NCBI GenBank assembly: GCA_030390025.1
Contig: JASTWF010000321.1
Location: 372,001 to 436,000, forward strand
Reading direction: 5' to 3'
Length of the DNA stretch: 64,000 nucleotides
From: Squalus acanthias
Lineage: Eukaryota
Part shown: positions 10,354 to 63,100 of the stretch, one piece after another
Position numbering within the stretch: position 1 is the first letter of the stretch
How the letters are laid out: each line of letters starts with the position of its first letter
Notes under the pieces: model-generated
Database searches by the model: none
Told to the model about the DNA's origin: nothing
What the model saw: the letters and a program-made list of their open reading frames with translations, nothing else
Position numbers and translations under genes: made by a program

Positions 10354-10677
10354 TTAAGGATAAGGGCTAAACCATTTTTTAAGGATAAGGGCTAAACCAT
10401 TTAGGACAGAAATGAGGGGGAATTTCTTCACTCAGAGAGTGGTGAACCTGTGGAACTCATTGCCACAGAGGGCAGTGTACGCCAGCTCATTAAATATATT
10501 TAAGAGGGAATTAGATATATTTCTACAGGCAAAAGGGGTTAAGGGTTACGGAGAGAAGGCGGGGACGGGATACTGAATTGAAGGATCAGCCATGATCTCA
10601 TTAAATGGCGGAGCAGGCTCGAAGGGCCGGATGGCCTACTCCTGCTCCTATCTTCTATGTATCTATGTATCTATGTA
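10354..10677 (+). mobile_element. Young 5'-truncated CR1 copy, same family as 30784-34828
   Basis: Almost identical to 34524-34820; (CTATGTAT)n tail. Confidence 0.9.
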
Positions 10678-13282: not shown

Positions 13283-14125
13283 GCAGATAATGAAGCAGTC
13301 CATGCCCGCATGCAGCAAGACCTGGACGACATTCAGGCTTGGGCTGATAAGTGGCAAGTAACATTCGCGCCACACAGGCAATGACTATCTCCAACAGGCG
13401 AGAGTCTAACCACCGCCCCTTGACATTCAATGGCATTACCATCGCCGAATCCCCCACTATCAACATCCTGGAGGTGACCATTGAAACTTAACTGGAACAG
13501 CCACATAAATACTGTGTCAACAAGAGCAAGTCAGAGGCTGGGTATTCTGTGGCAAGTGTCTCACCTCTTGACTCCCCAAAGCCTTTCCACCATCTACAAG
13601 GCACAAGTCAGGAGTGTGATGGAACACTCTCCACTTGCCTGGATGAGTGCAGCTCCAACAACACTCAAGAAGCTCGACACCATCCAAGACAAAGCAGGCC
13701 ACTTGATTGACACCCCATCCACCGCCTTAAACATTCACTCCCTCCACCACCGGCGTACCGTGGCTGCAGTGTGTACCATCTACAAGATGCACTGCAGCAA
13801 CTCTTAAGGCTTCTTCGACAGCACCTCTCAAGCCCACAACCTCTACCACCTAGAAGGACAAGGGCAGCATGGGAACACCACCACCTCTAAGTTCCTCTCC
13901 AAGTTACACACCATCCTGACTTAGAAATATATCGCCGTTCCTTCATCGTCGCTGGGTCAAAATCCTGGAACTCCCTCCCTAACAGCACTGTGGGAGAACC
14001 TTCACCACACGGACTGCAGCGGTTCAAGAAGGCGGCTCACCACCACCTTCTCATTGGCAACTAGGGATGGGCAATAAATGCTGGCCTTGCCGGTGACACC
14101 CACATCCCAGGAATGAGTAAAACAA
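13283..14125 (+). mobile_element. LINE family B 3' fragment
   Basis: MQQDLDDIQAWADKWQVTF, IYKAQVRSVMEHSPLAW and 3' UTR as at 1757-2545. Confidence 0.85.
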
Positions 14126-30520: not shown

Positions 30521-30832
30521 CTATCTTCCTTTCAATCTGCTTGGTTTCCAGTCAGGTTTCAGTGGCAAGTAACATTCGTGCCACACAAGTGCCAGGCAAT
30601 GACCATCTCCAAGAGAAAGTCTAACCACCACCCCTTGACATTCAATGGCATTACCATCGTCAAATCCCCCACCAACAACATCCTGGGGGTCACCATTGAC
30701 CAGAAACTTAACTGGACCAGCCACATAAATACTGTGGCAACAAGAGCGGGTCAGAGGCTGGGTATTCTGTGGCGAGTGTCTCAATAAATAAACTAAAACT
30801 AGAAAATTAATAAGTAATATAAGGGTTAAGTC

Positions 30833-31780
30833 ATGGCAGTAGAGCTCGGACCTGTGTCATGCTCCTCCTGTAACATGTGGGAAATCATGGACGCTTCCTG
30901 TGTCCCTGACAACCATGTGTGCGGGAAGTGTGTCCAGCTGCAGCTCATGTGGGACCGCATGACGGCCCTTGAGCTGCGGATGGACTCACTTTGGAGCATC
31001 CACGATTCTGAGAGGGTTGTGAATAGCACATTTAGTGAGTTGGTCACACCGCAGGTTAAGGCCAGAGTAGATAGTACATGGGTGACCAAAAGGCAGAGCA
31101 AGGGCAGGAAGGTAGTGCAGGAATCCCCTGGGGTTGTCTCCCTCAGCAACAGGTTCACCGCCTTAGGTGCTGTTGTCGGGGGGGATGACTCATCGGGGGA
31201 AGGCACCAGCAGCCAGGCTCATGGCACCATGACTGGCTCTGTTGCAAAGAAGGGAGGGAAAAAGAGTGGCAGGGCTATAGTAATAGGGGATTTGATTGTA
31301 AGGGGAATAGATAGGAGTTTCTGTGGTCGCGACCGAGACTCCAGGATGGTAATTTGCCTCCCTGGTGCAAGGGTCAAGGATGTCTCGGCGCGGGTGCAGA
31401 ACATTCTGGAGGGGGAGGGGGAACAGCCAGTTGTCGTGATACATGTTGGTACCAACGACGTAGCTAAAAAAAGGGAAGAGGTCCTACAAGTAGAATTTAG
31501 GGAGTTAGGAGCCAAGCTAAAAAGTAGGACCTCGAAGGTAGTAATCTCTGGATTACTACCAGTGCCACGTGCTAGTAAGAGTACAGAGAACAGGATAGTT
31601 AGGCTAAATACGTGGCTTGAGCAGTGGTGTAAGAGGGAGGGTTTTAAATTTTTGAGGCATTGGGACCAGTTTTGTGGTAGGTGTGACCTATACAAAAGGG
31701 ACGGTCTACACCTGTGCAAAGGTGGAACTGATGTTCTCGGGGTAAATTTTGATAAAGCAGTTCGGGAGCATTTAAACTAG
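30833..31780 (+). CDS. CR1 ORF1p (zinc finger, coiled coil, SGNH/GDSL esterase-like domain), 315 aa
   Basis: CSSC..CGKC; VIGD.IVR, CLPGARV, HVGTND and DGLHL blocks. Confidence 0.92.
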   Translation: MAVELGPVSCSSCNMWEIMDASCVPDNHVCGKCVQLQLMWDRMTALELRMDSLWSIHDSERVVNSTFSELVTPQVKARVDSTWVTKRQSKGRKVVQESPGVVSLSNRFTALGAVVGGDDSSGEGTSSQAHGTMTGSVAKKGGKKSGRAIVIGDLIVRGIDRSFCGRDRDSRMVICLPGARVKDVSARVQNILEGEGEQPVVVIHVGTNDVAKKREEVLQVEFRELGAKLKSRTSKVVISGLLPVPRASKSTENRIVRLNTWLEQWCKREGFKFLRHWDQFCGRCDLYKRDGLHLCKGGTDVLGVNFDKAVREHLN

Positions 31781-34722
31781 TATGGCAGGGGGCTAGAAAC
31801 CCATGTAGTGAAATAGAGGAAAGTGAAAGGCAGACAGAAATAAATGGTAAAAAGGAGAGGAACAAAAAACAAAGGGCCAAACTAATTCATAAAAAATGTG
31901 AGCATAAAAAAAGCCTGAGGGTTTTATACCTTAATGCGAGAAGCATCAGGAACAAGGTAGATGAATTAGCTGTGGAAATAGAGGTTAATAATTATGATCT
32001 AATTGGGATTACGGAAACATGGTTGCAGGGTGAGCAGGGCTGGGAGCTTAACATACAGGGGTATTCAGTATTTAGGAAGGATCGACAAAAAAGAAAGGGA
32101 GGAGGGGTAGCATTGCTGGTAAAAGAGGGGATAAATGCAATTGAAAGGAAGGATATTAACTCAGTTAATACAGAATCTATATGGGTGGAGCTAAGAAATA
32201 GCGAGGGGCGAAAAACATTAATAGGAGTGGTATATAGGCCTCCAAATAGTAAAATAGAGGTTGGGGAGGGCATCACGAGGGAAATTAGAGAAGCGTGCAA
32301 TAAGAGCACAGCTGTCATCATAGGTGACTTTAACTTACATATAGATTGGACTAGCCTAATCAGTAAAAATAATGAGGAGGAGGAATTCCTTGAGTGTTTA
32401 AGGGATGGTTATCTGGATCAATATGTCGAGGAACCAACTCGGGAACAGGCTATATTGGACTGGGTACTGTGCAATGAGAAGGGACTAATTAGTAATCTTG
32501 TTGTACGGGGACCCTTGGGTCAGAGCGATCATAACATGATCGATTTCTCACTCGAAATGGAGAGCGAAGAAATTGACTCAGAGACTCAGGTCCTGAATTT
32601 AAACAAGGGGAATTATGATGCCATTAGACGGGAACTGAGTAGGTCTGATTGGACAACGTTCCTGGGAGGACTGGAGGTAGATAAACAATGGCAAGCATTT
32701 AAAGATAGAATGACAAAATTGCAAAAATTGTTTATACCAATCTGGCATAAAAGGAAATCTAAAAAGGTGACTCAACCGTGGATAACAGGGGAAATTAGAG
32801 ACAGCATAAAATCCAAAGATAGGGCGTATAAAATAGCCAAAAAACGCGCCAGAGCGGAAGATTGGGAACAGTTTAAGATAGAGCAAAGGAGGGCAAAGGG
32901 CTTAATCAAGAAGGGCAAAATAGCTTACGAAAGCAAGCTGGCGGAAAATATAAAAACTAACTCCAAAAGCTTTTATAAGTATATCAAGAGGAAAAGACTG
33001 GTGAAAACCAAAGTTGGTCCATTGCAGTCAGATACGGGGGAATATATAATGGGAAATAAGGAAATGGCAGACCAACTAAATGCATACTTTGGGTCAGTCT
33101 TTACGAAGGAAGACACAAAAAACCTCCCTGGGATATCGGGAAAAATAGGGACATTGGCAAAGGAGGAACTGACGCAAATCAATATCTCTAAGGATATGGT
33201 GTTAAGGAAGCTAAAGGGATTGAAGGCGGACAAATCCCCAGGGCCTGATAACATGCATCCTAGGGTACTGAAGGAGGTGGCCCTAGAGATAGCGGATGCA
33301 CTAAGCATGATTTTTCAGAATTCATTAGACTCGGGAACAGTGCCCATGGATTGGAGGGTAGCTAACGTTACCCCACTATTCAAAAAGGGGGGTAGGGAAA
33401 AAGCAGGTAATTACAGACCTGTAAGCCTTACATCAGTTGTGGGCAAAATGCTGGAGTCCATCATTAAGGATGAAATAGCCGAGCACTTAGCAAATGGGGA
33501 CAGGATAGGACAGAGTCAACATGGATTTACAAAGGGTAAATCGTGCTTGACTAATCTATTGGAATTTTTTGAGGGAGTAACTGGTAAAATAGATGGGGGA
33601 GAGCCAGTAGATGTGGTGTACCTGGACTTCCAAAAGGCCTTCGATAAGGTCCCACATAAAAGATTAGCATGGAAAATTGAAGCTCATGGGATAAAGGGGA
33701 AAGTATTGACGTGGATAGAGAACTGGCTGTCAGATAGAAAACAGAGAGTTGGAATAAACGGCTCATTTTCTGAATGGCAGGCAGTAACAAGTGGGGTACC
33801 ACAGGGATCTGTCCTGGGTCCCCAGCTGTTCACAATTTATATTAATGACCTGGATCAGGGAGTCGAATGCAGCATTTCCAAATTTGCAGACGACACTAAA
33901 CTAGGAGGGGGGGTGGGCTCAGAGGAGGAGACCAGGAAGCTCCAGAGCGATTTGGACAGACTGGGTGATTGGGCGGATAAATGGCAGATGCACTATAATG
34001 TGGACAAGTGCGAAGTTATCCACCTTGGGTGCAGGAACGGGAGGGCAAATTATTATTTAAATGGCAATAAATTGGGAGAGGGGGAAGTACAGAGAGACCT
34101 GGGTGTTCTTGTACACCAGTCACTGAAGGCGAGCATGCAGGTGCAACAGGCGGTCAAGAAGGCAAACGGTATGCTGGCCTTCATAGCAAAAGGGTTGGAA
34201 TACAGGAACAGGGATACCTTGCTGCAGCTGTACAGGGCACTGGTGAGACCACACCTCGAGTACTGTGTACAGTTTTGGTCGCCTCATCTGAGGAAAGATG
34301 TTCTTGCCATGGAGGGGGTGCAGCGGCGATTCACCAGGCTGATACCAGGAATGGCGGGATTGACCTATGAGGAGAGACTATGTAGTTTAGGGATGTACAC
34401 ACTGGAGTTTAGAAGATTGAGAGGGGACCTCATAGAAGTGTATAAAATTCTGACAGGTCTAGACAGATTAGATGCAGAAGGAATGTTTCCCTTGGCGGGT
34501 GAGAACAGAACTAGAGGACATAATTTAAGGATAAGGGCTAAACCATTTAGGACAGAAATGAGGGGGAATTTCTTCACTCAGAGAGTGGTGAACCTGTGGA
34601 ACTCATTGCCACAGAGGGCAGTGTACGCCAGCTCATTAAATATATTTAAGAGGGAATTAGATATATTTCTACAGGCAAAAGGGGTTAAGGGTTACGGAGA
34701 GAAGGCGGGGACAGGATACTGA
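31756..34722 (+). CDS. CR1 ORF2p (APE endonuclease plus reverse transcriptase)
   Basis: Stop-to-stop frame open from 31756; YLNARS, ITETW, YRPP, GDFN, SDH; QHGF, LDFQKAFD, GVPQGSVLGP, FADD. Confidence 0.95.
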   Translation, partial: SSSGAFKLVWQGARNPCSEIEESERQTEINGKKERNKKQRAKLIHKKCEHKKSLRVLYLNARSIRNKVDELAVEIEVNNYDLIGITETWLQGEQGWELNIQGYSVFRKDRQKRKGGGVALLVKEGINAIERKDINSVNTESIWVELRNSEGRKTLIGVVYRPPNSKIEVGEGITREIREACNKSTAVIIGDFNLHIDWTSLISKNNEEEEFLECLRDGYLDQYVEEPTREQAILDWVLCNEKGLISNLVVRGPLGQSDHNMIDFSLEMESEEIDSETQVLNLNKGNYDAIRRELSRSDWTTFLGGLEVDKQWQAFKDRMTKLQKLFIPIWHKRKSKKVTQPWITGEIRDSIKSKDRAYKIAKKRARAEDWEQFKIEQRRAKGLIKKGKIAYESKLAENIKTNSKSFYKYIKRKRLVKTKVGPLQSDTGEYIMGNKEMADQLNAYFGSVFTKEDTKNLPGISGKIGTLAKEELTQINISKDMVLRKLKGLKADKSPGPDNMHPRVLKEVALEIADALSMIFQNSLDSGTVPMDWRVANVTPLFKKGGREKAGNYRPVSLTSVVGKMLESIIKDEIAEHLANGDRIGQSQHGFTKGKSCLTNLLEFFEGVTGKIDGGEPVDVVYLDFQKAFDKVPHKRLAWKIEAHGIKGKVLTWIENWLSDRKQRVGINGSFSEWQAVTSGVPQGSVLGPQLFTIYINDLDQGVECSISKFADDTKLGGGVGSEEETRKLQSDLDRLGDWADKWQMHYNVDKCEVIHLGCRNGRANYYLNGNKLGEGEVQRDLGVLVHQSLKASMQVQQAVKKANGMLAFIAKGLEYRNRDTLLQLYRALVRPHLEYCVQFWSPHLRKDVLAMEGVQRRFTRLIPGMAGLTYEERLCSLGMYTLEFRRLRGDLIEVYKILTGLDRLDAEGMFPLAGENRTRGHNLRIRAKPFRTEMRGNFFTQRVVNLWNSLPQRAVYASSLNIFKRELDIFLQAKGVKGYGEKAGTGY

Positions 34723-34828
34723 ATTGAAGGATCAGCCATGATCTCATTAAATGGCGGAGCAGGCTCGAAGGGCCGGATGGCCTACTCCTGCTCCTATCTT
34801 CTATGTATCTATGTATCTATCTATGTAT

Positions 34829-37800
34829 CTCCTGACTCCCCAAAGACTTTCCACCATCTACAAGGCACAAGTCAGGAGTGTGATGGAATACTTTCCACTT
34901 GCCTGGATGAGTGCAGCTCCAGTAACACTCAAAAAGCTCAACACCATCCAAGACAAAGCAGCCCGCTTGATTGGCATCTCATCCACCACCTTAAACATTC
35001 ACTCCCTCCACCACCTTAAACATTCACTCCCTCCACCGCCAGCGTACCGTGGCTGCAGTGTGTACCATCTACAAGATGCACTGCAGCAACTCATCAAGGC
35101 TTCTTTGACAGCACCTTCCAAACCCGCGACCTCTACCAGCTAGAAGGACAAGTGCAGGAGACGCATGGGAACACCATCACCTTCAAGTTCCCCTCCAAGT
35201 TACACACCATCCTGATTTGGAGATATATCACTGTTCCTTCATCGTCGTTGGGTCAAAATCCTGGATCTCCATCCCTAACAGCACTGTGGGAGTACCTTCA
35301 CCACAAGGACTGCAGCGGTTCAAGAAGGCGGCTCACCACCACCTTCTCAAGGGCAATTAGGGATGGGCAATAAATGCTGGCCTTGCCAGCGATGCCCACA
35401 TCCCAGGAACAAATAAAAAAAACCTCTTCTCTGCGTTGAATTTTATCTGTCATGTGTCCGCCCATTCCATTAGCCTGTCAATGTCTTCTTAAAGTCTATT
35501 GCTGTCTTCCTCGCTGTTTACTATATTTCCAAGTTTCGTGTCATCTGCCAATTTCGAAATTGTGCACTGTACCCCCCAAGTCCAAATCATTAATGTATAT
35601 CAAAAACAGCAGTAGTCCCAGTATTAAACCTTGGGGAAAGCCACTGTATACCTCCCTCCAGTCCGAACAACAGCCATTCACCACAACTCTGCTTTCTATC
35701 CTTTAGCCAATTTTGTATCCATGTTGCTACTGCCCCTTTTATCCCATGGGCTTCAATTTTGATAAAAAGCCGAATATGTGGTACTTTATCAATCACCTTT
35801 TGAAAGTCCATGTACACAACATCAACTGCACTGCCCTCATCCAAACTCTCCGTTACCTCATCAAAAAATTCAATCAAGATAGCCAAACACAATTTGCCCT
35901 TAACTAATCTGTGCTGGCTCTCCTTTATTAGCCCACGCTTGCCCATTTTCTCCCGAATTATTATTTCTAAAAGCTTCCCCACCACCGACGTTAAACTGAC
36001 TGGCCTATAATTGCCAGGTTTATCCTTCTCCCCTTTTTGAACAAGGGTGTAACATTTGCAATCCTCCAGCCCTCTGGCACCACCCCTGTATCTAAGGAGG
36101 ATTGGAAGGTTGTGGCCAGTACCTTTGCAAAATCTACCCTTACTTCCCTCAGCTACCTAGGATGCATCCCATCGTTCCGGGTGACTTATCCACTTTAATT
36201 ACCGCCAGCCTTTCTAGTAGCTCCTCTTTATCTATTTTTATCTCATCCAGTATCACAGCATCCTCCTCGTTTACCATAGCTTTGGCAAAGTCCTCTTCCT
36301 TGGTAAACTCTGATGCAAAGTACTCAGTTAGTACCTCCTGCCTCCACCAATAATTCTCCATTTTGGTCCCTAATCGGCCTCACTGCTCCTCTGACAACCC
36401 TTTTACTGTTAATATCCCTATAGAAGACCTTTGGATTCCCTCTTATGTTAGCTGCCTATCTATTCTCGTACTCTCTTGGCCACTCTTATTTACTTTATCA
36501 CTTGTCCTCTGTACTTTTTCTTCTCAGCCTGATTCTCCCTTGTTATTATCAAGCTGACATCTGTCATGTGCCCCCTTTATCTGCTCCATCCTACTCTCTA
36601 ACTCCCCAGTCATCCAGGGAGCTCTGGCTTTGGTTGCCCTCCCTTTCCCACTTGTGGGAACGTATCTAGGGAGGGAAAATGCTAGAATCTATTATTAAGG
36701 ACGTAGTAATGCAGGGCACTTAGAAAATAGTAATATGATTGGGCAGAGTCAACATGGTTTTTGAGATGCTCCTTAAAACCTACATCATCTGTCCTTATAT
36801 CTCCTCATGTGACTCGGTGCCACATTTTGTTTGATAACACTCCTGTGAAGCAAATTGGGTCATTTTACTATGTTAAAGGCACTATATAAATGCAAGTTGT
36901 TGTTGCTTTAGTGGTGTTGGTTGAGAGATTAACATTGGCCGGGATACCGTGAGAGCTCCCCTGCTCTTTTTCGAATAGTGCCATGGGATCTTTTATATCC
37001 ACCTGAGAGGGGAGATGAGGAGTTGGTTTAATGTCTCATCTGAAAGACGGCACCTTTAACAGTGTAGCACTCCCTCAGTACTGCACTGGAGTGTCAGCCT
37101 GAATTACATGCTCAACTCTCTGGAAGGGAATGTGGACCCACGATCTTCTGACTCAGAGGTGAGAGTGTTACCAACTGAGCTACAGCTGACACATGATCCT
37201 GGAGTTAGGTTCTGGAATACCACACTTGCCCTTGGTTTAATGTGTAATATATGTGGGCAGAACAAACGAAGAACAGAGACAGGATGAGTTGTTAGTCAAG
37301 GTGCTTGTTTACTAGGCCAGAATGAACTGAGCATGCTCATACTAAACCATGTGACAAACCATGTGATAATACATTACATAATGCAAACATCGACTCCTTC
37401 CTATCGCCCAAAGAGTGTCCCAAGGAATTAGGGAGTAAATTTCACGTAAATTCAAAGGTCACAGCACCACATGGTGTGTGAGGAAGAGACACAGGCAGAA
37501 GAAGGAAAAAAAACAACAGGGTTAGCAAAGTAGTCTGTGTGATTGTCTATGGTTTGGGGTTTACGGGTGTCAGCTTAGCTCGGATCAGAGCGCACAATGT
37601 AGGCCATGTAAGAATATCGATATGTTTTTGCATTACTTGTGTTTCTAACAAAGACAAAAAAGAAATCAAGAAACGGCTGAGTGCACTAGATCCAGCAAAG
37701 GCTATGGGCCCCGACAACATCCTGGCTGTCGTGCTGAAGACTTGTGCTCCAGGACTAGCCGCCCTTCTAGCCAAGCTTTTTCCAGTACAGCTACAACACT

Positions 37801-39178
37801 GGCATCTACCCGACAATGTGGAAAATTGCCAAGGTATGTCCTGTCCACAAAAAAAAGGACAAATCCAACCCAGCCAACTTTTTCTTTTATTCATTCATGG
37901 GATGTGGGCGTCGCTGGCAAGGCCAGCATTTATTGCCCATCCCTTACTCACCAATAACCTGCTCATCAATGCTCAGTTTAGGTTCTGCCAGGACCACTTG
38001 GTTACAGACCTCATTACAACCTTAGTCCAAACACGGAAAAAAAAACGGATTCCAGAGGTGAGGTGAGAGTGACTGCCCTTGACATCAAGGCAGCATTTGA
38101 CGGAGTGTGGTATCAAGGAGTCCTAGTAAAATTGAAGTCAATGGGAATCAGGGGGAAAACTCTCCACTGGCTGGAGTCATACCTAGTACAAGGGAAAATG
38201 TCAGGCATGACCTACCTTTCACAAATCCATGCGGGCTCTCTCTGATCAACTAAAAATGTTCAAGGTGTTCAGTCACCCTATCCTTAATTATAGACTCTAG
38301 CAATTTCCCGACAACAGATATTAGGCTAACTGGTCTATAATTCCCTGGTTTCCCTCTCTTGCCATTCTTAAATAGCGGAGTGACATGCATAATTTTCCAA
38401 TCTAAAGGGACGGTTCCTGAATCGAGAGAACTTTGGAAGATTATAGTTAGGGCATCTGCAATGTGCTCACCTACTTCCTTTAAAACCCTGGGATGGAAAC
38501 CATCTGGTCCTGGGGATTTGTCACTCTTTAGTGCCATTATTTTCTTCATTACTGTTAATTTTATCGAGTCCCTGTCCCCGATTCAATATTAGTTTCTTTG
38601 GGATTTCCAGCATGCTATCCTCTTCTTCTACTGTAAATACTGTAGAATGGAACATGGTTGTGGTTGTTGGAGGTCAATCATCTCAGCCCCAGGACATCGC
38701 TGCAGGAGTTCCGCAGGACAGTGTCCGAGGCCCAACCATCTTCAGTTGCTTCATCAATGACCTTCCCTCCATCATAAGTTCAGAAGTGGGGATGTTCACT
38801 GATGACTGCGCAGTGTTCAGTTCCATTCGCAACTCCTCAGATAATGAAGCAGTCCATGCCTGCATGCAGCAAGACCTGGAAAACTTTCAGGCTTGGGCTG
38901 ATAAGTGGCAAGTAACAGTTGCGCCACACAAGTGCCAGGCAATGAATATCTTCAAAAAGCGAATGTCTAACCAACTCCCCATGACATTCAATGGGATTAC
39001 CATCGCCAAATCCCCCACCATCAACATCCTGGGGGTCACCATTGACTAGAAACTTAACTGGACCAGCCACATAAATACTGTGGCTACAAGAGCAGGTCAG
39101 AGGCTGGGTATTTTGTGGCGTGTGTCTCACCTCATGACTCCCCAAAGCTTTTCCACCATCTACAAGACACAAGTAAGG
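34829..39178 (+). repeat. Segmental duplicate of the block at 1-5425
   Basis: 35410-37370 matches 2545-4490 and 37098-39178 matches 1-2091, including non-repeat sequence and identical TE junctions. Confidence 0.9.
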
Positions 39179-39549
39179 AGGATAGCATGCTGGAAATCCC
39201 AAAGACACATTAACCAACTTTTTTATCATGGCAATCGCTCGATTGGGCTGAATGCTTCTTCATGTGTACAAACAATGATCCAATCAGATTCATAAATCAC
39301 TAAAAGTAGCGACGCAGCATAACAAAGCCATAAAACATGCAAACAAAGCATTGGGGCTGAATTCTAGAGGGATAGAATTGAACAGGGGAGTTTTCAACTT
39401 GTATGGATCCCTGGTTAGACCACACTTGGAGGATTTTGCACAGATCTGGTCTCCAGAAACCCCGATATACAGCCAGTCTATTCGTGTGTTAACCATGAAT
39501 CAGGTCAGAGCACATTCCTGAGATGTTTTATGGTGGTCCTCCCCAGCAT

Positions 39550-40632: not shown

Positions 40633-43600
40633 TCTCCCCAGAGCCCCCTTTCCCCAGTCTCCCTCTCTCCCCGAGTCCCCATTCCCCAGTCTCCCTCTCT
40701 CCCCGAGCCCCCATTCCCCCTCTATCCCCGAGCCCCCATTTCCCAGTCTCCATCTCTCCCCGAGCCCCCATTCCCCAGTCTCCCTCTCTCCCCGAGCCCC
40801 CATTCCCCAGTCTCTCTCTCTCCCCGAGCCCCCATTCCCAGTCTCCCTCTCTCCCGAGCCCCCATTCCCCAGTCTCCCTCTCTCCCGAGCCCCATTCCCC
40901 AGTCTCTCTCTTTCTCCCCTGAGCCCCCATTCCCCAGTCTCCTCTATCTCCCCGAGCCCCCATTCCCAGTCTCCCTCTCTCCCCGAGCCCCCATTCCCCA
41001 GTCTCTCTCTCTCCCCGAGCCCCCAATCCCAGTCTCCTCTCTCCCACGAGCCCCCATTCCCCAGTCTCTCTCTCTTCCCCGAGCCCCCATTCCCCAGCTC
41101 TCCCTCTCTCCCCGAGCCCCCATTCCCCAGTCTCCCTCTCTCCCCGAGCCCCCATTCCCAGTCTCTCTCTCTCCCGAGCCCCATTCCCCAGTCTCCCTCT
41201 CTCCCCGAGCCCCCATTCCCCAGTCTCTCTCTCCCCGAGCCCCCATTCCCCAGTCTCCTCTCTCCCCTGAGCCCCCCATTCCCCAGTCTCCCTCTCTCCC
41301 CGAGCCCCCATTCCCAGTCTCTCCTCTCTCCCCGAGCCCCCATTCCCCAGTCTCCCTCTCTCCCCGAGCCCCCTATCTCCAGTCTACCTCTCTCCCCGAG
41401 CCCCCATTCTCCAGTCTCCCTCTCTCCCCGAGCCCCCATTCCCCAGTCTCCCTCTCTCCCCGAGCCCCCATTCTCCAGTCTCCCTCTCTCCCCGAGCCCC
41501 CATTCTCCAGTCTCCCTCTCTCCCCGAGCCCCCATTCCCCAGTCTCTCTCTCTCCCCCGAGCCCCCATTCCCCAGTCTCCCTCTCTCCCCGAGCCCCCAT
41601 TCCCAGTCTCTCTCTCTCTCCCCGAGCCCCCATTCTCCAGTCTCTCTCTCTCCCCGAGCCCCCATTCCCCAGTCTCCCTCTCTCCCCGAGCCCCCATTCT
41701 CCAGTCTCACTCTCTCCCCGAGCCCCCATTCCCCAGTCGCTCTCTCTCCCCGAGCCCCCATTCCCCAGTCTCCCTCTCTCCCCGAACCCCCATTCCCCAG
41801 TCTCCCTCTCTCCCCGAGCCCCCATTCCCCAGTCTCCCTCTCTCCCCGAGCCCCCATTTCCCAGTCTCTCCTCTCTCCCCGAGCCCCCCATTTCCCAGTC
41901 TCTCTCTTCCCGAGCCCCCATTCCCCGGTCTCACTCTCTCCCCGAGCTCCCATTCCCCAGTCTCCCTCTCTCCCCGAGCTCCATTCCCCAGTCTCCCTCT
42001 CTCCCCGAGCCCCCATTCCCCAGTCTCTCTCTCTCTCCCCGAGCCCCCATTCCCCAGTCTCTCTCTCCCCGAGCCCCCATTCCCAGTCTCCTCTCTATCC
42101 CCGAGCCCCCATTCCCCAGTCTCTCTCTCTCCCCCCGAGCCCCATTCCCCAGTCTCCCTCTCTCCCGAGCCCCATTCCCCAGTCTCCCTCTCTCCCCGAG
42201 CCCCCATTCCCCAGTCTCTCACTCTCCCCGAGCCCCCATTCCCCAGTCTCCCTCTCTCCCCGACCCCCATTCCCCAGTCTCCCTCTCTCCCCGAGCCCCC
42301 ATTCCCCAGTCTCCCTCTCTCCCGAGCCCCCATTTCCCAGTCTCACACTCTCTCCCCGAGCCCCCATTCCCCAGTCTCTCTCTTCCCCGAGCCCCCATTC
42401 CCCAGTCTCACTCTCTCCCCGAGCTCCCCATTCCCCAGTCTCCCTCTCTCCCCGAGCCCCCATTCCCCAGTCTCCCTCTCTCCCCGAGCCCCCATTCCCC
42501 AGTCTCTCTCTCTTCCCCGAGCCCCCATTCCCCAGTCTCTCTCTCCCCGAGCCCCCATTCCCCAGTCTCTCTCTCTCCCCGAGCCCCCATTCCCCAGTCT
42601 CTCTCTCTCCCCCGAGCCCCCATTCCCCAGTCTCCCTCTCTCCCCGAGCCCCCATTCCCCAGTCTCCCTCTCTCCCCGAGCCCCCATTCCCCAGTCTCTC
42701 ACTCTCCCCGAGCCCCCATTCCCCAGTCTCTCTCTCTCTCTCCCCGAGCCCCCATTCCCCATTCTCCCTCTCTCCCCGAGCCCGCATTCCCCAGTCTCTC
42801 TCTCTCCCCCGAGCCCCCATTCCCCAGTCTCCCTCTCTCCCCGAGTCCCCCATTCCCCAGTCTCCCTCTCTCCCCGAGCCCCCATTCCCCAGTCTCTCTC
42901 CCCCTGAGCCCCCATTCCCCAGTCTCCCTCTCTCCCCGAGTCCCCATTCCCCAGTCTCCCTCTCTCCCCGAGCCCCCATTCCCCAGTCTCCCTCTCTCCC
43001 CGAGTCCCCATTCCCCAGTCTCCCTCTCTCCCCGAGCCCCCATTCCCCCTCTATCCACGAGCTCCCATTCCCCAGTCTCCATCTCTCCCCGAGCCCCCAT
43101 TCCCCAGTCTCCCTCTCTCCCCGAACCCCCATTCCCCAGTCTCTCTCTCTCCCCGAGCCCCAATTCCCCAGTCTCCCTCTCTCCCCGAGCCCCCATTCCC
43201 CAGTCTCCCTCTCTCCCCGAGCCCCCATTCCCCAGTCTCTCTCTCTCCCCGAGCCCCAATTCCCCAGTCTCCCTCTCTCCCCGAGCCCCCATTCCCCAGT
43301 CTCCCTCTCTCCCCGAGCCCCCATTCCCCAGTCTCTCTCTCTCCCCCCGAGCCCCCATTCCCCAGTCTCTCTCTCTCCCGAGCCCCCATTCCCCAGTCTC
43401 TCTCTCTCCCCGAGCCCCCATTCCCCAGTCTCTCTCTCTCCCCGAGCCCCCATTCCCCAGTCTCTCTCTCTCCCCGAGCCCCCATTCCCCAGTCTCTCTC
43501 TCTCCCCGAGCCCCCATTCCCCAGTCTCCCTCTCTCCCCGAGCCCCCATTCCCCAGTCTCTCTCTCTCCCCCGAGCCCCCATTCCCCAGTCTCCCTCTCT

Positions 43601-46600
43601 CCCCGAGCCCCCATTCCCCAGTCTCCCTCTCTCCCCGAGCCCCCATTCCCCAGTCTCCCTCTCTCCCCGAGCCCCCATTCCCCAGTCTCTCTCTCTCCCC
43701 GAGCCCCCATTCCCCAGTCTCTCCTCTCTCCCCGAGCCCCCATTCCCCAGTCTCCTCTCTCTCCCCGAGCCCCCATTCCCCAGTCTCTCTCTCTCCCCGA
43801 GCCCCCATTCCCCAGTCTCCTCTCTCTCCCCGAGCCCCCATTCCCCAGTCTCTCCTCTCTCCCCGAGCCCCCATTCCCCAGTCTCCCTCTCTCCCCGAGC
43901 CCCCATTCCCCAGTCTCCCTCTCTCCCCGAGCCCCCATTCCCCAGTCTCCCTCTCTCCCCGAGCCCCCATTCCCCAGTCTCCCTCTCTCCCCGAGCCCCC
44001 ATTCCCCAGTCTCCCTCTCTCCCCGAGCCCCCATTCCCCAGTCTCTCTCTCTCCCCGAGCCCCCATTCCCCAGTCTCTCTCTCTCCCCCGAGCCCCCATT
44101 CCCCAGTCTCTCTCTCTCCCCGAGCCCCCATTCCCCAGTCTCCCTCTCTCCCCGAGCCCCCATTCCCCAGTCTCCCTCTCTCCCCGAGCCCCCATTCCCC
44201 AGTCTCTCTCTCTCCCCGAGCCCCCATTCCCCAGTCTCCCTCTCTCCCCGAGCCCCCATTCCCCAGTCTCCCTCTCTCCCCGAGCCCCCATTCCCCAGTC
44301 TCTCCTCTCTCCCCGAGCCCCCATTCCCCAGTCTCTCTCTCTCCCCGAGCCCCCATTCCCCAGTCTCCCTCTCTCCCCGAGCCCCCATTCCCCAGTCTCT
44401 CTCTCTCTCCCCGAGCCCCCATTCCCCAGTCTCTCCTCTCTCCCCGAGCCCCCATTCCCCAGTCTCTCTCTCTCCCCCGAGCCCCCATTCCCCAGTCTCT
44501 CTCTCTCCCCCGAGCCCCCATTCCCCAGTCTCCCTCTCTCCCCGAGCCCCCATTCCCCAGTCTCTCCTCTCTCCCCGAGCCCCCATTCCCCAGTCTCCCT
44601 CTCTCCCCGAACCCCCATTCCCCAGTCTCTCTCTTCCCCCGAGCCCCCATTCCCCAGTCTCCCTCTCTCCCCGAGCCCCCATTCCCCAGTCTCTCTCTCT
44701 CCCCGAGCCCCCATTCCCCAGTCTCCTCTCTCCCCCGAGCCCCCATTCCCCAGTCTCTCTCTCCCCGAGCCCCATTCCCCAGTCTCCCTCTCTCCCCGAG
44801 CCCCCATTCCCCAGTCTCCCTCTCTCCCCGAGCCCCCATTCCCCAGTCTCTCCTCTCTCCCCGAGCCCCCATTCCCCAGTCTCTCCTCTCTCCCCGAGCC
44901 CCCATTCCCCAGTCTCCCTCTCTCCCCGAGCCCCCATTCCCCAGTCTCTCTCTCTCCCCGAGCCCCCATTCCCCAGTCTCCTCTCTCCCCCGAGCCCCAT
45001 TCCCCAGTCTCCCTCTCTCCCCGAGCCCCCATTCCCCAGTCTCTCTCTCTCCCCGAGCCCCCATTCCCAGTCTCCCTCTCTCCCCGAGCCCCCATTCCCC
45101 AGTCTCACTCTCTCCCCGAGCCCCCATTCCCCAGTCTCCCTCTCTCCCCGAGCCCCCATTCCCCAGTCTCCTCTCTCCCCGAGCCCCCATTCCCCAGTCT
45201 CACTCTCTCCCCGAGCCCCCATTCCCCAGTCTCCCTCTCTCCCCGAGCCCCCATTCCCCAGTCTCTCTCTCTCCCCGAGCCCCCATTCCCCAGTCTCCTC
45301 TCTCCCCGAGCCCCCATTCCCCAGTCTCTCTCTCTCTCCCCGAGCCCCCATTCCCCAGTCTCCCTCTCTCCCCGAGCCCCCATTCCCCAGTCTCCTCTCT
45401 CCCCGAGCCCCCATTCCCCAGTCTCCCTCTCTCCCCGAGCCCCCATTCCCCAGTCTCCCTCTCTCCCCGAACCCCCATTCCCCAGTCTCTCCCTCTCCTC
45501 CGAGCCCCCATTCCCCAGTCTCTCACTCTGTCCCTGAGCCCCCATTTCCCAGTCTCCCTCTCGCCCCGAGCCCCCATTCCCCAGTCTCTCCCTCTCCTCC
45601 GAGCCCCCATTCCCCAGTCTCTCTCTCTCTCCCCGAGGCCCCATTTCCCTGTCTCTCTCTCTCTCCCCGAGCCCCCATTCCCCAGTCTCTCTCTCTCTCC
45701 CCGAGCTCCCATTCCCCAGTCTCTCTCTCTCTCCCCGAACCCCCATTCCCCAGTCTCTCTCTCTATCCCCGAGCCCCCATTCCCCAGTCTCTCTCTCTCT
45801 CCCCGAACCCCCATTCCCCAGTCTCCCTCTATCCCCGAGCCCCATTCCCCAGTCTCTCTCTCTCCCCGAGCCCCCATTCCCCAGTCTTCCTCTCTCCCCG
45901 AGATCCCATTCCCCAGTCGCTCTCTCTATCCCCGAGCCCCCATCCCCAGTCTCTCTCTCTCTCCCCGAGCCCCCATTCCCCAGTCTCTCTCTCTCCCCGA
46001 GCCCCCATTCCCCAGTCTCCCTCTCTCCCCGAGCCCCCATTCCCCAGTCTCTCTCTCCCCCCGAGCCCCCATTCCCCAGTCACCCTCTATCCCCGAGCCC
46101 CCATTCACCAGTCTCTCCCTCTCTCCCCGAACCCCCATTCCCCAGTCTCCCTCTCTCCCCGAACCCCCATTCCCCAGTCTCTCTTTCCCCCGAGTCCCCA
46201 TTCCCCAGTCTCCCTCTCTCCCCGAGTCCCCATTCCCAAGTCTCTCTCTCTCCCCGAGTCCCCATTCCCCAGTCTCCCTCTCTCCCCGAGCCCCCATTCC
46301 CCAGTCTCCCTCTCTCCCCGAGTCCCCATTCCCCAGTCTCCCTCTCTCCCCGAGTCCCCATTCCCCAGTCTCTCTCTCTCCCCGAGCCCCCATTCCCCAG
46401 TCTCCCTCTCTCCCCGAGTCCCCATTCCCCAGTCTCCCTCTCTCCCCGAGTCCCCATTCCCCAGTCTCTCTCTCTCTCCCCGAACCCCCATTCCCCAGTC
46501 TCCCTCTCTCCCTGAGCCCCCATTCCCCAGTCTCCCTCTCTCCCCGAGCCTCCATTCCCCAGTCTCCCTCACTCCCCGAGCCCCCATTCCCCAGTCTCCC

Positions 46601-48380
46601 ACTCTCCCCGAGTCCCCATTCCCCAGTCTCCCTCTCTTCCCGAGTCCCCATTCCCCAGTCTCCCTCTCTCCCCGAGCCCACATTCCCCAGTCTCTCTCTC
46701 TCTCCCCGAGCCCCCATTCCCCAGTCTCTCTCTCTCTCTCCGAGCCCCCATTCCCCAGTCTCACTCTCTCCCCGAGCCCCCATTCCCCAGTCTCCCTCTC
46801 TCCCCGAGCCCCCATTCCCCAGTCTCCCTCTCTCCCCGAGCCCCCATTCCCCAGTCTCCCTCTCTCCCCGAGCCCCCATTCCCCAGTCTCTCTCTCTCCC
46901 CCCGAGCCCCCATTCCCCAGTCTCCCTCTCTCCCCGAGCCCCCATTCCCCAGTCTCTCTCTTTTTCTCCCCGAGCCCCCATTCCCCAGTCTCCCTCTCTC
47001 CCCGAGCCCCCATTCCCCAGTCTCTCCCTCTATCCCCGAGCCCCATTCCCCAGTCTCTCTCTCTCCCCGAGCCCCCATTCCCCAGTCTTCCTCTCTCCCC
47101 GAGATCCCATTCCCCAGTCGCTCTCTCTATCCCCGAGCCCCCATCCCCCAGTCTCTCTCTCTCTCCCCGAGCCCCCATTCCCCAGTCTCTCTCTCTCCCC
47201 GAGCCCCCATTACCCAGTCTCCCTCTCTCCCCGAGCCCCCATTCCCCAGTCTCTCTTTCCCCCCGAGCCCCCATTCCCCAGTCACCCTCTATCCCCGAGC
47301 CCCCATTCACCAGTCTCTCCCTCTCTCCCCGAACCCCCATTCCCCAGTCTCCCTCTCTCCCCGAACCCCCATTCCCCAGTCTCTCTTTCCCCCCGAGTCC
47401 CCATTCCCCAGTCTCCCTCTCTCCCCGAGTCCCCATTCCCAAGTCTCTCTCTCTCTCCCCGAGTCCCCATTCCCCAGTCTCCCTCTCTCCCCGAGCCCCC
47501 ATTCCCCAGTCTCCCTCTCTCCCCGAGTCCCCATTCCCCAGTCTCCCTCTCTCCCCGAGTCCCCATTCCCCAGTCGCTCTCTCTATCCCCGAGCCCCCAT
47601 CCCCCAGTCTCCCTCTCTCCCCGAGTCCCCATTCCCCTGTCTCCCTCTCTCCCCGAGTCCCCATTCCCCAGTCTCTCTCTCTCTCCCCGAACCCCCATTC
47701 CCCAGTCTCCCTCTCTCCCTGAGCCCCCATTCCCCAGTCTCCCTCTCTCCCCGAGCCTCCATTCCCCAGTCTCCCTCACTCCCCGAGCCCCCATTCCCCA
47801 GTCTCCCACTCTCCCCGAGTCCCCATTCCCCAGTCTCCCTCTCTTCCCGAGTCCCCATTCCCCAGTCTCCCTCTCTCCCCGAGCCCACATTCCCCAGTCT
47901 CTCTCTCTCTCCCCGAGCCCCCATTCCCCAGTCTCTCTCTCTCTCTCCGAGCCCCCATTCCCCAGTCTCACTCTCTCCCCGAGCCCCCATTCCCCAGTCT
48001 CCCTCTCTCCCCGAGCCCCCATTCCCCAGTCTCCCTCTCTCCCCGAGCCCCCATTCCCCAGTCTCCCTCTCTCCCCGAGCCCCCATTCCCCAGTCTCTCT
48101 CTCTCCCCCCGAGCCCCCATTCCCCAGTCTCCCTCTCTCCCCGAGCCCCCATTCCCCAGTCTCTCTCTTCTCCCCGAGCCCCCATTCCCCAGTCTCCCTC
48201 TCTCCCCGAGCCCCCATTCCCCAGTCTCTCCCTCTATCCCTGAGCCCCCATTCCCCAGTCTCCCTCTGTCCCCGAGCCCCCATTCCCCAGTCTCCCTCTC
48301 TCCCCGAGCCCCCATTCCCCAGTCTCCCTCTCTCCCCGAACCCCCATTCCCCAGTCTCTCTCTCTCCCCGAGACCCCACT
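40633..48380. repeat. Minisatellite, ~32-bp unit CCCCGAGCCCCCATTCCCCAGTCTCCCTCTCT, about 240 copies
   Basis: Direct tandem repetition with a variable (CT)n segment. Confidence 0.97.
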
Positions 48381-59600: not shown

Positions 59601-60139
59601 AAAGCACAAATGTCAAAGTAAATGTTGTTATAAAACACATTTTGTTGTGCACTTGAGTAGTAACAAATTCAGTCTTCTGGTTATAATCATTTTATTCTTT
59701 AACTTCAGTATTAAAAGCAATTTACAACCTGAGTATTGTCACAGATAAGTGTGCGAACCTAGGCATGGGTCCTGTCTCGTACTGCTTAAACAAATGAAAA
59801 AGCTTATATTTATACACTGTTTTCTTATCAAACTGGAACTGGCATTGCCTAATATGGTAGTCTCTGGCTACAGCATAGTCCAGAGATACAAGGCTACATT
59901 TTCTTCAACATGCTGTGGTAAGCCTAACCCTTCTAGTTTCTAGACATTCTTACCATAAATAAACATATCCAAGGCTGGTTGGTTGCGAACACCAGCAGTT
60001 GCTAAGTGAAATCTGTATCTCTCTCTAACTCTATCTCTCTCTCTCTCTAATGATGCCATCCACCTTTTTTTCCTATATTCAATGAACTAAACATGAACAC
60101 CTTTCAGAAGCTGAATTAACCGAGTTCCATATGCCAACA

Positions 60140-63100
60140 CTTTGTATCTCACTCATGCTGTACCTGCCTTGGGAGTGTTTGATGGGATAGTGTAGAGGGA
60201 GCTTTACTCTGTATCGAACCGTGTTGCAGCTGGCCTGGGAGTGTTTGATAGGACAGTGTAGAGGGAGCTTTACTCTGTATCTACTCATGCTGTACCTGCC
60301 CTAGGAGTGTTTGATGGGATAGTGTAAAGAAAGACTTGCATTTACATAGCGCCTTTCACGACCACCGGATATCTGAAAGCTCTTTACAGCCAATGAAGTA
60401 CTTTTGAAGTGGAGTCACTGTTGTAATGTGGGAAAACGCGGCACAGCAAGCTCCCACAAACAGCAATGTAAAAATGACCAGATAATCTGTTTTTGTTACG
60501 TTGGTTGAGGGAGAAATATTAGCCACGACACCGGGGATAACTCCCCTACTCTTTTTCAAAACAGTGCCATGGGATCTTTTACGTCCACCGGAGAGCAGAC
60601 AGGGCCTCGGTTTAACGTCTCACCTGAAAGACTGCACCTCCGACAGTGCAGCACTCCCTCAGTACTGCACTGGAGTGTCAACCTAGCTTTATGTGCGCAA
60701 GTTCCTGGAGTGGGACTTGAACCCACAACCTCCTAACTCAGAGGCGAGTGTGCTACCAACTGAGCCACAGCTGACACTGTAGGGGAGCTTTACTCTGTAT
60801 CTAACCCGTGCTGTAGCTGGCCTTGGAGTGTTTGAAGGGACAGTGTAGAGGGAGCTTTACTCTGTATCTAACCCATGCTGTACCAGGCCTGGGAGTGTTT
60901 GATGGGCTAGTACAGAGGGAGCTTTACCCCATTATTACCCATGATGCACCCTCCAATTAATGCTCCGATGGTCCCTCTCTTTGATACCCTGAAGATCCCT
61001 CCACTTATTGCTTCTGACACTATTCCTGTTACAGGGAATAGACTTGTTTCGGAGCACAAAGGAGGTTGTGATATCCTTGCCTCATCCCAAACACCATTTC
61101 CACAAACTGCCTCTCTGTTTGTTTCCTGGCTCCTTTGTGATGTCACCTGGAGACAGGTTTACGCCCCTGGTTACACAGCATCAGTGGGAGTCACTGTGGG
61201 AGGAGCTGGACTTGGCAGCTAACACTGTGAGTGTGTTTAGTCCCTATAAATTTAATATTAAGGTAAGTAATTCAACCAAATGTCATACAGTCATAGTATG
61301 GTTACAGTACAGAAGGAGGCCATTCAGCCCATCGAGCCTGTCCCACTCCCTCGCCCTTTCCCCTAGCTTGCAAATTTTTTCCTTCAGATACTTATCCAAT
61401 TCCCTTTTGAAAGACATTAATTACAAATATATTCACATTAAATATAATCATAGTAACAAAAATAGTCCAATTGTATTCCACTTAAATTCTAGAATTAATA
61501 TTCATTTTTAGATTCGAAGATTCTTGGCATGAACAGTATCTCTGGAAGGTGGAGAGAGAGGAGTCGAATCATCGTCACACTTACTGGGACTGGAAAAGGT
61601 CGCTGGATTCACAGAGAAGATCTGGTGGGAACAAGAACCCCAGAGGTGAGAGTCTAACCAGCTGCTGGGAGCTGTCTGACAGCTGCCATAAGGCTCAGCC
61701 TTTGATGCGACAAGTTGACCTGAATTTAACTCGAATGTAAAGCTAGCCAATACCTCACCTGGGAGTGCTTGACACTTACATGTAGAGGAAGTTTTATTCT
61801 GTGTTCTTACAGTGCAGTACCTGAGCTGGTGTGCTTCATTGGATAGTTTCAGAGGAGCTGCACGTAGCAGTTAACACATGCTGGATCTGAGTTGGCTGTG
61901 TTTGGTGAACCAATTTAGAGAGAGCTTCACTCTGTATCTAACCCGTGCTCAGCCTGCCCTGGGAGTGTTTCATGGGAAAGTGTAGATGGAGCATTACTCA
62001 CTATACAACCACATGCTGTACCTGCTCTGGGAGTGTTTGATGGGATAGTGTAGATGGAGCTTTCCTCTGTATCTAACTCATGCTGCACCTGCCCCTGGGA
62101 GTGTTTGATGGGATAGTGTAGATCAAGCTTTACTCTGTATCTAACCCATGCTCTGCCTGCCCAGGGAGTGTTTGATCAGACAGTGTAGAGGGAGCTATAC
62201 TCTGTACCTAAACTGTGCTTTACCTGGCCTGGGAGTGTCTTATGGGATAGTACAGAGGGAGCTTTACCCCATTATTGTCCATGATGCACCCTCCAAGTAA
62301 TCCTTTGATGATCCCACCACTTGATACCCCTGAAGATCCCTCCACTTATTGCCTATGACGCCCTTCCTGTTACAGGGAATAGACTTGTTTCAGAGCACAA
62401 AGGAGGTTGTAATATCATTGCCCCATCCCAAACACCATTCCCACAAACTGCCTCACTCTGCCAAAGCAGGAGGGAGACACACTGGCTGATATAAAGAGAA
62501 GGGATACTTTCTGGTGTACAAAGCAAGAGGTAGACATGGGGGCCATTGAATAGTGGGACCTCACATTTGGAAGATGGGAGGGATAATTTATCAGTGGTAA
62601 TTTTGGGAGTCTGTGCTCCCTGCTTGGAGTCTTTGTACATGGGATTGGGTTGGAGACGGGACTGTTTGTACAACCTGCGTTCATGCCCAGTGAGACTGCA
62701 CACCAGGAGCACAGCCTGGTCATGTGACCCTGTAATACCTTGAGTGGGAGGGGCTTGGGCTGCTTTTTGACATGTTTCCTGGCTCCTTCGGGTTTACGCC
62801 CCTGGTTACACAGCATCAGTGGGAGTCACTGTGAGAGGAGCTGGACTTGGCAGCTGACACTGCCAGTGAGTTTAGTCCTTATAAATAGGGGAAATAATAG
62901 AACAATTTAATATTAAGGTAAGTAATTCAACCAAATGTCATTAATTACAAACATATTCAAAGTAAATATAATCATAGTCACAAAAATAGACCGAATGTAT
63001 TCCAATTACAGATTCTAGAATTAATATTAATTTTTATATTAAATGTTTCATGTAGTGAAGAGTATCTCAGGAGGGTGGGAGAGAGTGGAGCCGAACCATC

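Follow-up and report, generated by a model that had tools for sequence, protein, structure and literature searches.

In Squalus acanthias, the reverse transcriptase of a CR1-clade LINE probably arises through programmed -1 ribosomal frameshifting where open reading frame 1 (ORF1) ends, which, judged from the sequence and its relatives, would join the products of ORF1 and ORF2 in a fusion protein of 1296 residues. The element lies on the plus strand of a 64,000-nt stretch of contig JASTWF010000321.1 (assembly GCA_030390025.1, positions 372,001 to 436,000), hereafter called the window, and all coordinates given here refer to it. We infer that ribosomes translate ORF1 until tRNA-Leu and tRNA-Asn occupy its last two sense codons, UUA and AAC, after which a fraction would slip one base back onto UUU AAA, read CUA (31777..31779) in place of the stop codon, and continue through a linker into the endonuclease and reverse transcriptase (315 + 981 residues). 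The remaining ribosomes would terminate at once and deliver free ORF1 protein (ORF1p), as in retroviral Gag versus Gag-Pol. Such a fusion had been proposed, together with a stimulatory RNA stem, in a preliminary description of this DNA; comparison across five groups of related elements supports the fusion well but not the stem.

The junction has the canonical layout of a -1 frameshift site: a heptamer phased on the zero frame, located inside an overlap of two ORFs and conserved at the nucleotide level. The slippery heptamer TTTAAAC (U_UUA_AAC, 31771..31777) is read as T TTA AAC on the last two ORF1 codons and is directly followed by the ORF1 stop TAG (UAG, 31778..31780), as had been described before. 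Tandem TGA TAA stops (31750..31755) close the -1 frame upstream and limit the overlap to 31756-31780. Of the 313 codon positions in the window's ORF1, 3 carry an in-phase heptamer of the X XXY YYZ type, as do 5 of 986 in ORF2, from which we calculate a chance of a few percent that one falls within the 25-nt overlap. A single copy with the heptamer is weak evidence, and its conservation is strong evidence; the junction is raised above chance because the heptamer is conserved in distant relatives. None of the 40 listed of 152 differences in sequencing reads falls within 31771-31777, one read set (X21) leaves the junction uncovered, and another (X22) gave no alignment.

ORF2 is in the -1 frame relative to ORF1 and is open over 31756..34722, which agrees with the preliminary description, as does the position of its first in-frame ATG (32536, codon 261), behind the SDH motif (32524-32532) of the endonuclease. 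The whole APE endonuclease domain (31933..32532; PF03372 and PF14529; motifs LNARS, ITETW, YRPP, GDFN, and SDH) lies upstream of that ATG, and the reverse transcriptase domain (33391..34023; PF00078, E 1.5e-31; PQGS and FADD motifs) follows. Between the shift site and the LNARS motif, a charged linker (31777..31929) is free of stops in the -1 frame and contains 3 and 8 stops in the other two frames. ORF2 is open from the shift site but has no usable start of its own: the AUGs nearest the ORF1 stop open ORFs of 4, 1, and 13 codons, all outside the ORF2 frame, and the closest of them (31782..31796, +1 frame) cannot give ORF2.

The element itself (30783..34827) has both ORFs open and is set within an older repeat. 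Its boundaries were derived, with an accuracy of 1-2 nt, from the comparison of its flanks with three uninterrupted copies of that repeat in the window (1819-2335, 13350-13904, and 38904-39180), which match both flanks; no clear target-site duplication was found around 30783..34827. The AT-rich 5' leader of about 50 nt (30783..30832) is probably a 5'-truncated UTR. CR1 LINEs end in short tandem repeats and not in poly(A), and the 3' UTR (34723..34827) likewise ends in a short tandem-repeat tail, located at 34794-34830. A 300-nt 3' fragment at 10378-10677 is 99.3% identical to the 3' end of the LINE, and the window contains neither a second ORF1 nor a second ORF1/ORF2 junction.

ORF1 (30833..31780) encodes 315 residues ending in Leu-Asn, with an N-terminal CX2CX16CX2C finger and a C-terminal SGNH esterase (PF13472, E 4.5e-10), whose residues 149-311 match the ORF1 esterase of PDB 4c1b (E 3.4e-29). 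Among named proteins, its best relatives come from sharks and rays. The kinship of ORF1 with proteins of sharks, turtles, snakes, and birds, together with known CR1 motifs, suggests the CR1-clade assignment, and the domain order agrees with it (Cys finger and SGNH esterase in ORF1; APE endonuclease, then reverse transcriptase in ORF2). At the place of the block-I Ser of the esterase, the window copy carries a Leu codon (31292..31294, translation VIGDLIVRGI); across 29 aligned relatives, this residue (Ser154) hardly varies.

Conservation of the heptamer and of the frame among relatives, which the preliminary description had named as a check, was found across five groups, in which heptamer, phase, stop, and -1 ORF2 are kept. 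From 91 loci, leaving out duplicates and those missing the ORF1 end, 48 rows were obtained, 38 of which, all distinct, could be scored (in the other 10 the contig breaks off at the junction). An unaltered TTTAAAC stands in 28 of these 38 junctions, 4 differ from it by a single letter, and 6 divergent esterase-bearing elements are without it. The codon after the exact heptamers is TAG in 25 cases, TGA in 2, and AAG in 1, and among 37 alignment rows, the window being one of them, 27 finish in phase with TTA AAC and a stop. The carriers, together with the window copy, fall into five groups. For four of these the endonuclease was measured and is 30-44% identical from group to group; for the fifth it was the esterase, which shows approximately 14-46% identity to that of the others. 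These groups do not represent five origins, because they are linked by common ancestry or by ORF1 exchange. In 16 chosen representatives, TTAAACT is invariant with variable flanks, while elsewhere in their ORF1s only 0.13 of Leu codons are TTA and 0.45 of Asn codons AAC, which argues that the constraint acts on nucleotides. Important to note here is that the representatives were hand-picked from heptamer-bearing loci and that two of them (L002 and L039) were anchored on the motif itself, so that this set describes the motif and the count of 38 junctions is the fairer measure.

Protein ends point in the same direction. Among 136 of 208 ORF1 proteins (those with a motif found and a tail of at most 45 residues), 75 end in LN and 18 in GN, as U_UUA_AAC and G_GGA_AAC would predict. 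A residue that lacks a U-ending codon precedes LN in 1 of 75 ends (p 9e-6), and one that lacks a G-ending codon precedes GN in 0 of 18 (p 0.018), both p-values being optimistic because the protein rows are related. Searches including viral contigs and plasmids returned no DNA for the GN-ending group, so G_GGA_AAC is deduced from protein ends; the only deep heptamer substitution seen in DNA is G_UUA_AAC (L001). Relatives of the element were likewise absent from viral contigs (three scans) and plasmids.

The -1 frame downstream is kept as well. It reaches the first endonuclease motif in 20 of the 25 in-phase junctions with an endonuclease in reach (17 of them stop-free), over linkers of 89-257 nt; the indels (5/25) and stops (3/25) in these linkers are read as decay. 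Upstream, closure of the -1 frame comes to within 13 nt of the ORF1 stop in L009, L010, and L014, which brackets the heptamer. In two copies (P0030 and P0039) ORF1 runs into the -1 frame (FKL); these fit the junction but are not products of frameshifting. A natural in-frame protein joining esterase, endonuclease, and reverse transcriptase was not present among the four longer matches from 8000 scored candidates, which is a weak test.

Downstream of the heptamer, the comparison indicates that the conserved 3' element is an unstructured G-run at fixed spacing, which the preliminary description did not contain. In the window, GGGGG (31788..31792) starts 10 nt after the heptamer, and at least four G of five are found at this offset in all 28 exact junctions, while the seven bases in between vary among the 16 representatives. 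Synonymous sites are fixed, with third-position G in CAG, AAG, AGG, and TCG, plus GGG. The UAUGG (31781-85) and CCAUG (31801-05) that had been proposed to form a stimulatory stem are present, but the predicted fold uses other pairing, and folding is no better than that of shuffled sequences: with energies of -7.6 to -7.8 kcal/mol and z between -0.21 and -0.95, the four folds 3' of the heptamer are weak, and the wider region 31740-31830 gives z +0.78. Only 2 of 32 folds of the 16 representatives reach z < -2, with no helix in common, and an alignment of nine junctions yields no consensus base pairs. The five Rfam matches (E up to 5) all lie far below the gathering scores. No stimulatory stem-loop or pseudoknot was found 5-9 nt downstream by tools that are blind to pseudoknots, and the junction is therefore not classed as a structure-stimulated frameshift site. 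A long-range contact between the G-run and the 3' UTR, as in frameshifting of the umbravirus type, was also considered: sites in the 3' UTR are among the five best partners for the window and for several loci of one group, but not for L001, L005, and the two bird-like loci that have a 3' UTR (L002 and L018), and upstream control sites pair about equally well or better. The geometry is of the protein-stimulated type, namely a short unstructured motif behind a fixed spacer of approximately 10 nt. We infer that the stimulator is probably this G-run and not a local stem or pseudoknot, perhaps with help from the adjacent stop; efficiency could be low because a conventional stimulatory structure is lacking.

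The main alternative is that ORF2 is reached by termination at UAG and reinitiation in the -1 frame, either on the CUA/CUG that overlaps the stop or on an AUG close by, with the G-run as an aid, as established for the silkworm LINE SART1 and proposed for mammalian L1 (PMC5972666 and PMC3708506, in the sections available). A missing AUG alone does not exclude this route, because L1 ORF2 translation is AUG-independent, as stated in an excerpt of PMC5009743. Moreover, an in-frame AUG stands 2 nt behind the stop (+5) in 4 of 29 heptamer junctions (L002, L008, L010, and L018), and the stop-overlapping codon in the -1 frame is CTG in L029 and L039. Nevertheless, we regard reinitiation as unlikely, as it leaves unexplained why the seven bases before the stop are conserved in the form of a phased X XXY YYZ and why LN and GN ends covary with the preceding residue. 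Furthermore, a conserved ORF2-frame AUG that overlaps the ORF1 stop or closely follows it was not found in the window or in 25 of the 29 junctions (none within 30 nt). The four loci that do have the AUG all belong to one bird-like group and keep the heptamer, which would fit a combination of both routes, with frameshifting ancestral and general and the AUG used also or instead in some bird-like subfamilies. That combination seems very unlikely to us: the sister loci L009, L014, and L022 have no such AUG, so the Met may be an ordinary internal residue, and the idea is inapplicable to the window's element.

Two further readings explain the conserved letters by other functions. If only the protein were constrained, with the terminal Leu-Asn of ORF1p and Gly residues in the linker conserved and the slippery appearance incidental, the near invariance of Asn315 in ORF1 alignments would be accounted for, but not the fixation of synonymous positions (TTA, AAC, the preceding T, the third-position G, and GGG), nor the terminal position of LN or GN despite a tail behind the DGxH motif that varies from 25 to 39 residues. 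The codon invariance largely refutes this reading, which we hold to be highly improbable. G-runs are known splicing elements, and the TAG after 25 of the 28 exact heptamers has the YAG ending of a splice acceptor, so that ORF2 might be translated from a processed RNA. Two of the 28 junctions have TGA instead, an upstream polypyrimidine tract is lacking in the 16 representatives, none of the nine read joints listed ends at 31781, and the strict codon phase and the covariation would stay unexplained; RNA processing at this site is thus scarcely credible.

Programmed frameshifting at the heptamer remains the probable route, and it would matter beyond this copy. The way in which LINEs translate ORF2 has been settled only in part, with reinitiation indicated in the cases studied (L1 and SART1). 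Should frameshifting hold, a vertebrate-wide LINE family would follow the Gag-Pol strategy of retroviruses, with an ORF1-ORF2 fusion as its ORF2 protein; annotations starting ORF2 at the first AUG would lose the endonuclease, and the junction would have to be included in expression constructs. CR1 is one of the major classes of repeats: in chicken it accounts for over 410,000 fragments and for 11.8% of the chromosomes (PMC11835228, in excerpt). The unstructured G-run at fixed distance is a candidate stimulator of frameshifting that would be of a new kind and is open to direct test. We put forward tentatively, and with more doubt than confidence, that esterase-bearing CR1 LINEs possess an ancient, structure-free, protein-stimulated -1 frameshift, in which a factor bound to the G-run (ORF1p of the element or a host G-run-binding protein) would make the ribosome stall and control the ratio of ORF1p to ORF1p-ORF2p. 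A trans-activated frameshift would then exist outside the RNA viruses, and the CR1 polymerase would come with an esterase and finger module of its own.

The element's closest described counterpart is CR1 subgroup 7 with ORF1 type IVB (zinc finger/leucine zipper and esterase) of Metcalfe and Casane 2014 (PMC4120745), which shares the Cys finger and SGNH esterase of ORF1 and the APE and RT of ORF2. Subgroup 7 is called exclusively vertebrate there, whereas two heptamer groups found here do not have a named vertebrate as best match. The word "frameshift" does not occur in the main text of that paper, nor in Schneider 2013, Odon 2013, or Galbraith 2021, and no report of CR1 frameshifting was found in the literature searched, a set to which Haas 1997, Kajikawa 1997, Kapitonov and Jurka 2003, and Kojima 2005 did not belong; the heptamer and G-run kept in very distant relatives point to a retrovirus-like strategy in the CR1 family that the searched literature does not describe. 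For mammalian ribosomes, few heptamers are as prone to shifting as U_UUA_AAC and G_GGA_AAC, according to the same excerpt of PMC5009743. Like retroviral gag-pol and coronavirus 1a/1b (U_UUA_AAC as in IBV), the CR1 junction has a phased heptamer ending the upstream ORF and a -1 polymerase without a start of its own; it differs in that no 3' stem-loop or pseudoknot was found, the stop directly follows the heptamer, and the carrier is a non-LTR element. The Dictyostelium non-LTR elements TRE5-A and TRE3-A, which belong to another clade and kingdom, are comparable by description only, with neither a shift site nor an experiment seen in the part of the source available. Mammalian L1 and silkworm SART1 share with CR1 a bicistronic LINE RNA, and their ORF2 output is low in the excerpts available; in L1 there is a 63-nt spacer, and in SART1 a UAAUG stop-start followed by a downstream structure, whereas CR1 has overlapping frames, no AUG, and a conserved slippery heptamer. 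In geometry only, there is a likeness to the -2/-1 frameshift in PRRSV nsp2, which nsp1beta and a poly(C)-binding protein stimulate and which is efficient only at spacers of 9-11 nt (PMC4937337, in excerpt): both have a heptamer, a 10-nt spacer, and a short unstructured motif, but the CR1 motif is G-rich instead of C-rich, the heptamer is another one, and a trans-acting protein is known for PRRSV and not for CR1.

The CR1-type LINE at window positions ~30783–34827 (forward strand) is inserted in an older repeat, of which three uninterrupted copies are found elsewhere in the window. Its ORF1 (315 aa) carries a CX2CX16CX2C finger together with an SGNH esterase (PF13472; PDB 4c1b, E 3.4e-29), ORF2 contains APE and RT domains, each with its own motifs, and shark and ray proteins are the best named relatives. 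The layout fits CR1 subgroup 7 with a type IVB ORF1 as described in PMC4120745; the probable place in the CR1 clade is based on the kinship of ORF1 to shark, turtle, snake and bird proteins and on CR1 motifs. The copy is intact except that the block-I serine (the esterase nucleophile position, nearly invariant in relatives) is replaced by leucine at 31292–31294. Since a 300-nt 3′ fragment within 10354–10677, whose 5′ junction is preceded by a tandem duplication of 25 bp, is 99.3% identical to the element, the family has been recently active. Between 30700 and 34800, 0.70–0.87 of the element's sampled 31-letter words are present in sequencing runs of nine differently coded organisms (A–I); near-identical copies seem to be spread over many organism labels, for which the candidate causes are a slowly evolving element, shared activity in the recent past, horizontal transfer or the labels themselves. 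The window also contains a 7.7-kb minisatellite (40633–48378; a C-rich 32-bp unit, strongly GC-skewed, repeated about 240 times) and several arrays with a repeat unit of 66–67 bp (59900–62300).

ORF1 ends in CAT TTA AAC TAG, and the heptamer U_UUA_AAC occupies 31771–31777, exactly as in the preliminary description. ORF2 was likewise correctly placed in the −1 frame, which is open from 31756 to 34722, is closed upstream by TGA TAA at 31750–31755 and overlaps ORF1 by 25 nt. It also holds that no in-frame AUG precedes the end of the endonuclease: the earliest ATG in the ORF2 frame lies at 32536 (its codon 261), and a protein begun there would miss the entire endonuclease. The AUGs that follow ORF1 lead into short ORFs (4, 1 and 13 codons) in a different frame. 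Phased slippery heptamers occur at 3 of 313 positions in ORF1 and 5 of 986 in ORF2, so that a single copy is little evidence.

The conservation of heptamer and frame, proposed earlier as a check, was examined in relatives, whose loci were gathered by a mid-esterase peptide pattern independent of the junction in partly overlapping sets (51 loci came from metagenomes, 10 from contigs of genomes, and three handles supplied 30). The end of ORF1 is reached in 48 rows, 10 of which end at a contig edge; among the 38 scorable junctions, TTTAAAC is present in 28, four are one letter off and six show nothing similar. ORF1 ends in phase on TTA AAC plus a stop in 27 of 37 rows (window counted), and the codon behind the 28 exact heptamers is TAG (25), TGA (2) or AAG (1). 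The carriers and the window element divide into five groups (the window element itself, which is shark-like, a bird-like one, a reptile- or bird-like one, locus L001 and one without assigned host), with a between-group endonuclease identity of 30–44% for the four measurable groups. In 16 representatives, chosen by us, TTAAACT is invariant, the initial T is kept in 15 and the flanks vary; elsewhere in these ORF1s TTA makes up 13% of Leu and AAC 45% of Asn codons. The exception is L001 with G_UUA_AAC, and PMC5009743 cites G_UU(A) from equine arteritis virus as a naturally occurring variant.

The protein ends agree. LN terminates 30 of 44 close ORF1 relatives and 75 of 136 scorable termini, turtle, snake and bird proteins included, followed by GN (18), SN (3) and KN, EN and FN (one each). 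U_UUA_AAC encodes LN and G_GGA_AAC encodes GN. Before LN, only one residue in 75 has no codon ending in U, against a background of 18% (p 9e-6); before GN, where 15 of the 18 residues are Gln, each has a codon ending in G (p 0.018). As the rows are related, both p values overstate the significance. DNA of the GN-ending group was looked for and none was found, G_GGA_AAC being read from protein ends. Other related proteins (P0223, P0225, P0226, P0227, P0129, P0229; P0149, P0176, P0179) have alternative ORF1 ends: X XXU UUZ heptamers could underlie GFFR, GFLG, MFF, RFFR and GLGF, and in several ends with a longer tail KN (A_AAA_AAC) lies internally, the usual distance being kept; both are protein-level hints.

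The six loci without heptamer are divergent. At two of them, L036 and L037, which we take to resemble fish L2-type elements, an ATG overlaps the last ORF1 codons (CATGACTGA at L036:4415–4430 and L037:735–750), possibly a stop-start junction and a natural control. Such loci show that not every esterase-bearing LINE carries the signal. Some esterase-type CR1 loci (L001, L003–L006, L053, L056) have unnamed rather than vertebrate proteins as best matches; the available text of PMC4120745 confines this ORF1 type to vertebrate subgroups. Three genomes filed as bacterial MAGs, G001 (L052–L055, L057, L059–L061), G002 (L056) and G003 (L058), yet contain eukaryote-type CR1 LINEs. G001 (17.8 Mb, 30 esterase matches) looks heavily contaminated with host DNA, and similar contamination probably accounts for P0011, an "SGNH hydrolase" of Pseudomonas aeruginosa with 56% identity to the window ORF1.

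Most likely, some of the ribosomes shift by −1 on U_UUA_AAC and would yield a 1296-residue ORF1–ORF2 fusion (315 + 981), while the remainder would release ORF1p. The endonuclease lies within reach at 25 in-phase junctions; at 20 of these the −1 frame runs into its first motif, 17 times stop-free; linkers to the endonuclease measure 89–257 nt and are dissimilar between groups, and their indels (five) and stops (three) are read as decay. In X12 record 4, a diverged contig of a sequencing run compared with the window, the linker has 214 letters versus 172 at 31865–32038; as the difference of +42 is a multiple of three, the frame is kept. Loci L009, L010 and L014 have a −1 frame that is shut 13 nt ahead of the ORF1 stop, which leaves the heptamer, its immediate neighbourhood or a position further downstream as the point of entry. 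A downstream restart in the −1 frame after termination, independent of AUG, is unlikely. An in-frame AUG lies within 30 nt at only 4 of 29 junctions, all bird-like, and is the chief support for a reinitiation route in part of the family. That bird-like subfamilies use both routes is very unlikely. Constraint at the protein level is slighter still in probability, and splicing is the least credible reading.

The slippage reading gains a second candidate signal: at least four G in five positions, starting 10 nt behind the heptamer, are present in 28 of 28 exact junctions (31788–31792 in the window, forward strand; 3 nt closer in L001). The run is a nucleotide signal because third codon positions of differing amino acids in the ORF2 frame are fixed; we infer its role in slippage. 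Structure prediction does not return the UAUGG/CCAUG stimulatory stem of the preliminary description, and the region is no more stable than shuffled sequence (z −0.21 to −0.95). No common local structure was found (z below −2 in 2 of 32 folds), RNAalifold gave 0 pairs on nine junctions, and no Rfam match came near the gathering score. For pairing of the G-run with the 3′ UTR, sites in that UTR were among the five best for the window and for several loci of one group, but not for L001, L005, L002 or L018, and control sites upstream paired about equally well or better. The proposed fusion keeps its heptamer, phase and frame and loses its stem; by these folds the junction, with its G-run at a fixed distance, does not qualify as a structure-stimulated site. 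Judged by its conservation, we regard the heptamer as a real, deeply conserved recoding signal in an element otherwise of known kind.

No report on CR1 frameshifting was found in the searched literature on CR1 and non-LTR frameshifting, outside which fall the primary CR1 descriptions, the SART1 paper and Repbase, which may already call the overlap a frameshift. The word "frameshift" is absent from the available main text of PMC3905857, PMC3708506, PMC4120745 and PMC8665684, and "CR1" from the first 300,000 characters of PMC5009743. A published precedent for −1 frameshifting in a LINE exists in Dictyostelium, for TRE5-A and TRE3-A (figure legend of PMC5911963). The available text of PMC5009743 adds that in pea enation mosaic virus a stop close to the shift site can itself matter. 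The junction would act like the −1 frameshift of gag-pol, and its G-run shares the geometry of the PRRSV nsp2 signal, an unstructured motif behind a 10-nt spacer; the PRRSV motif is C-rich, binds nsp1beta and PCBP and is functional at 9–11 nt only (PMC4937337).
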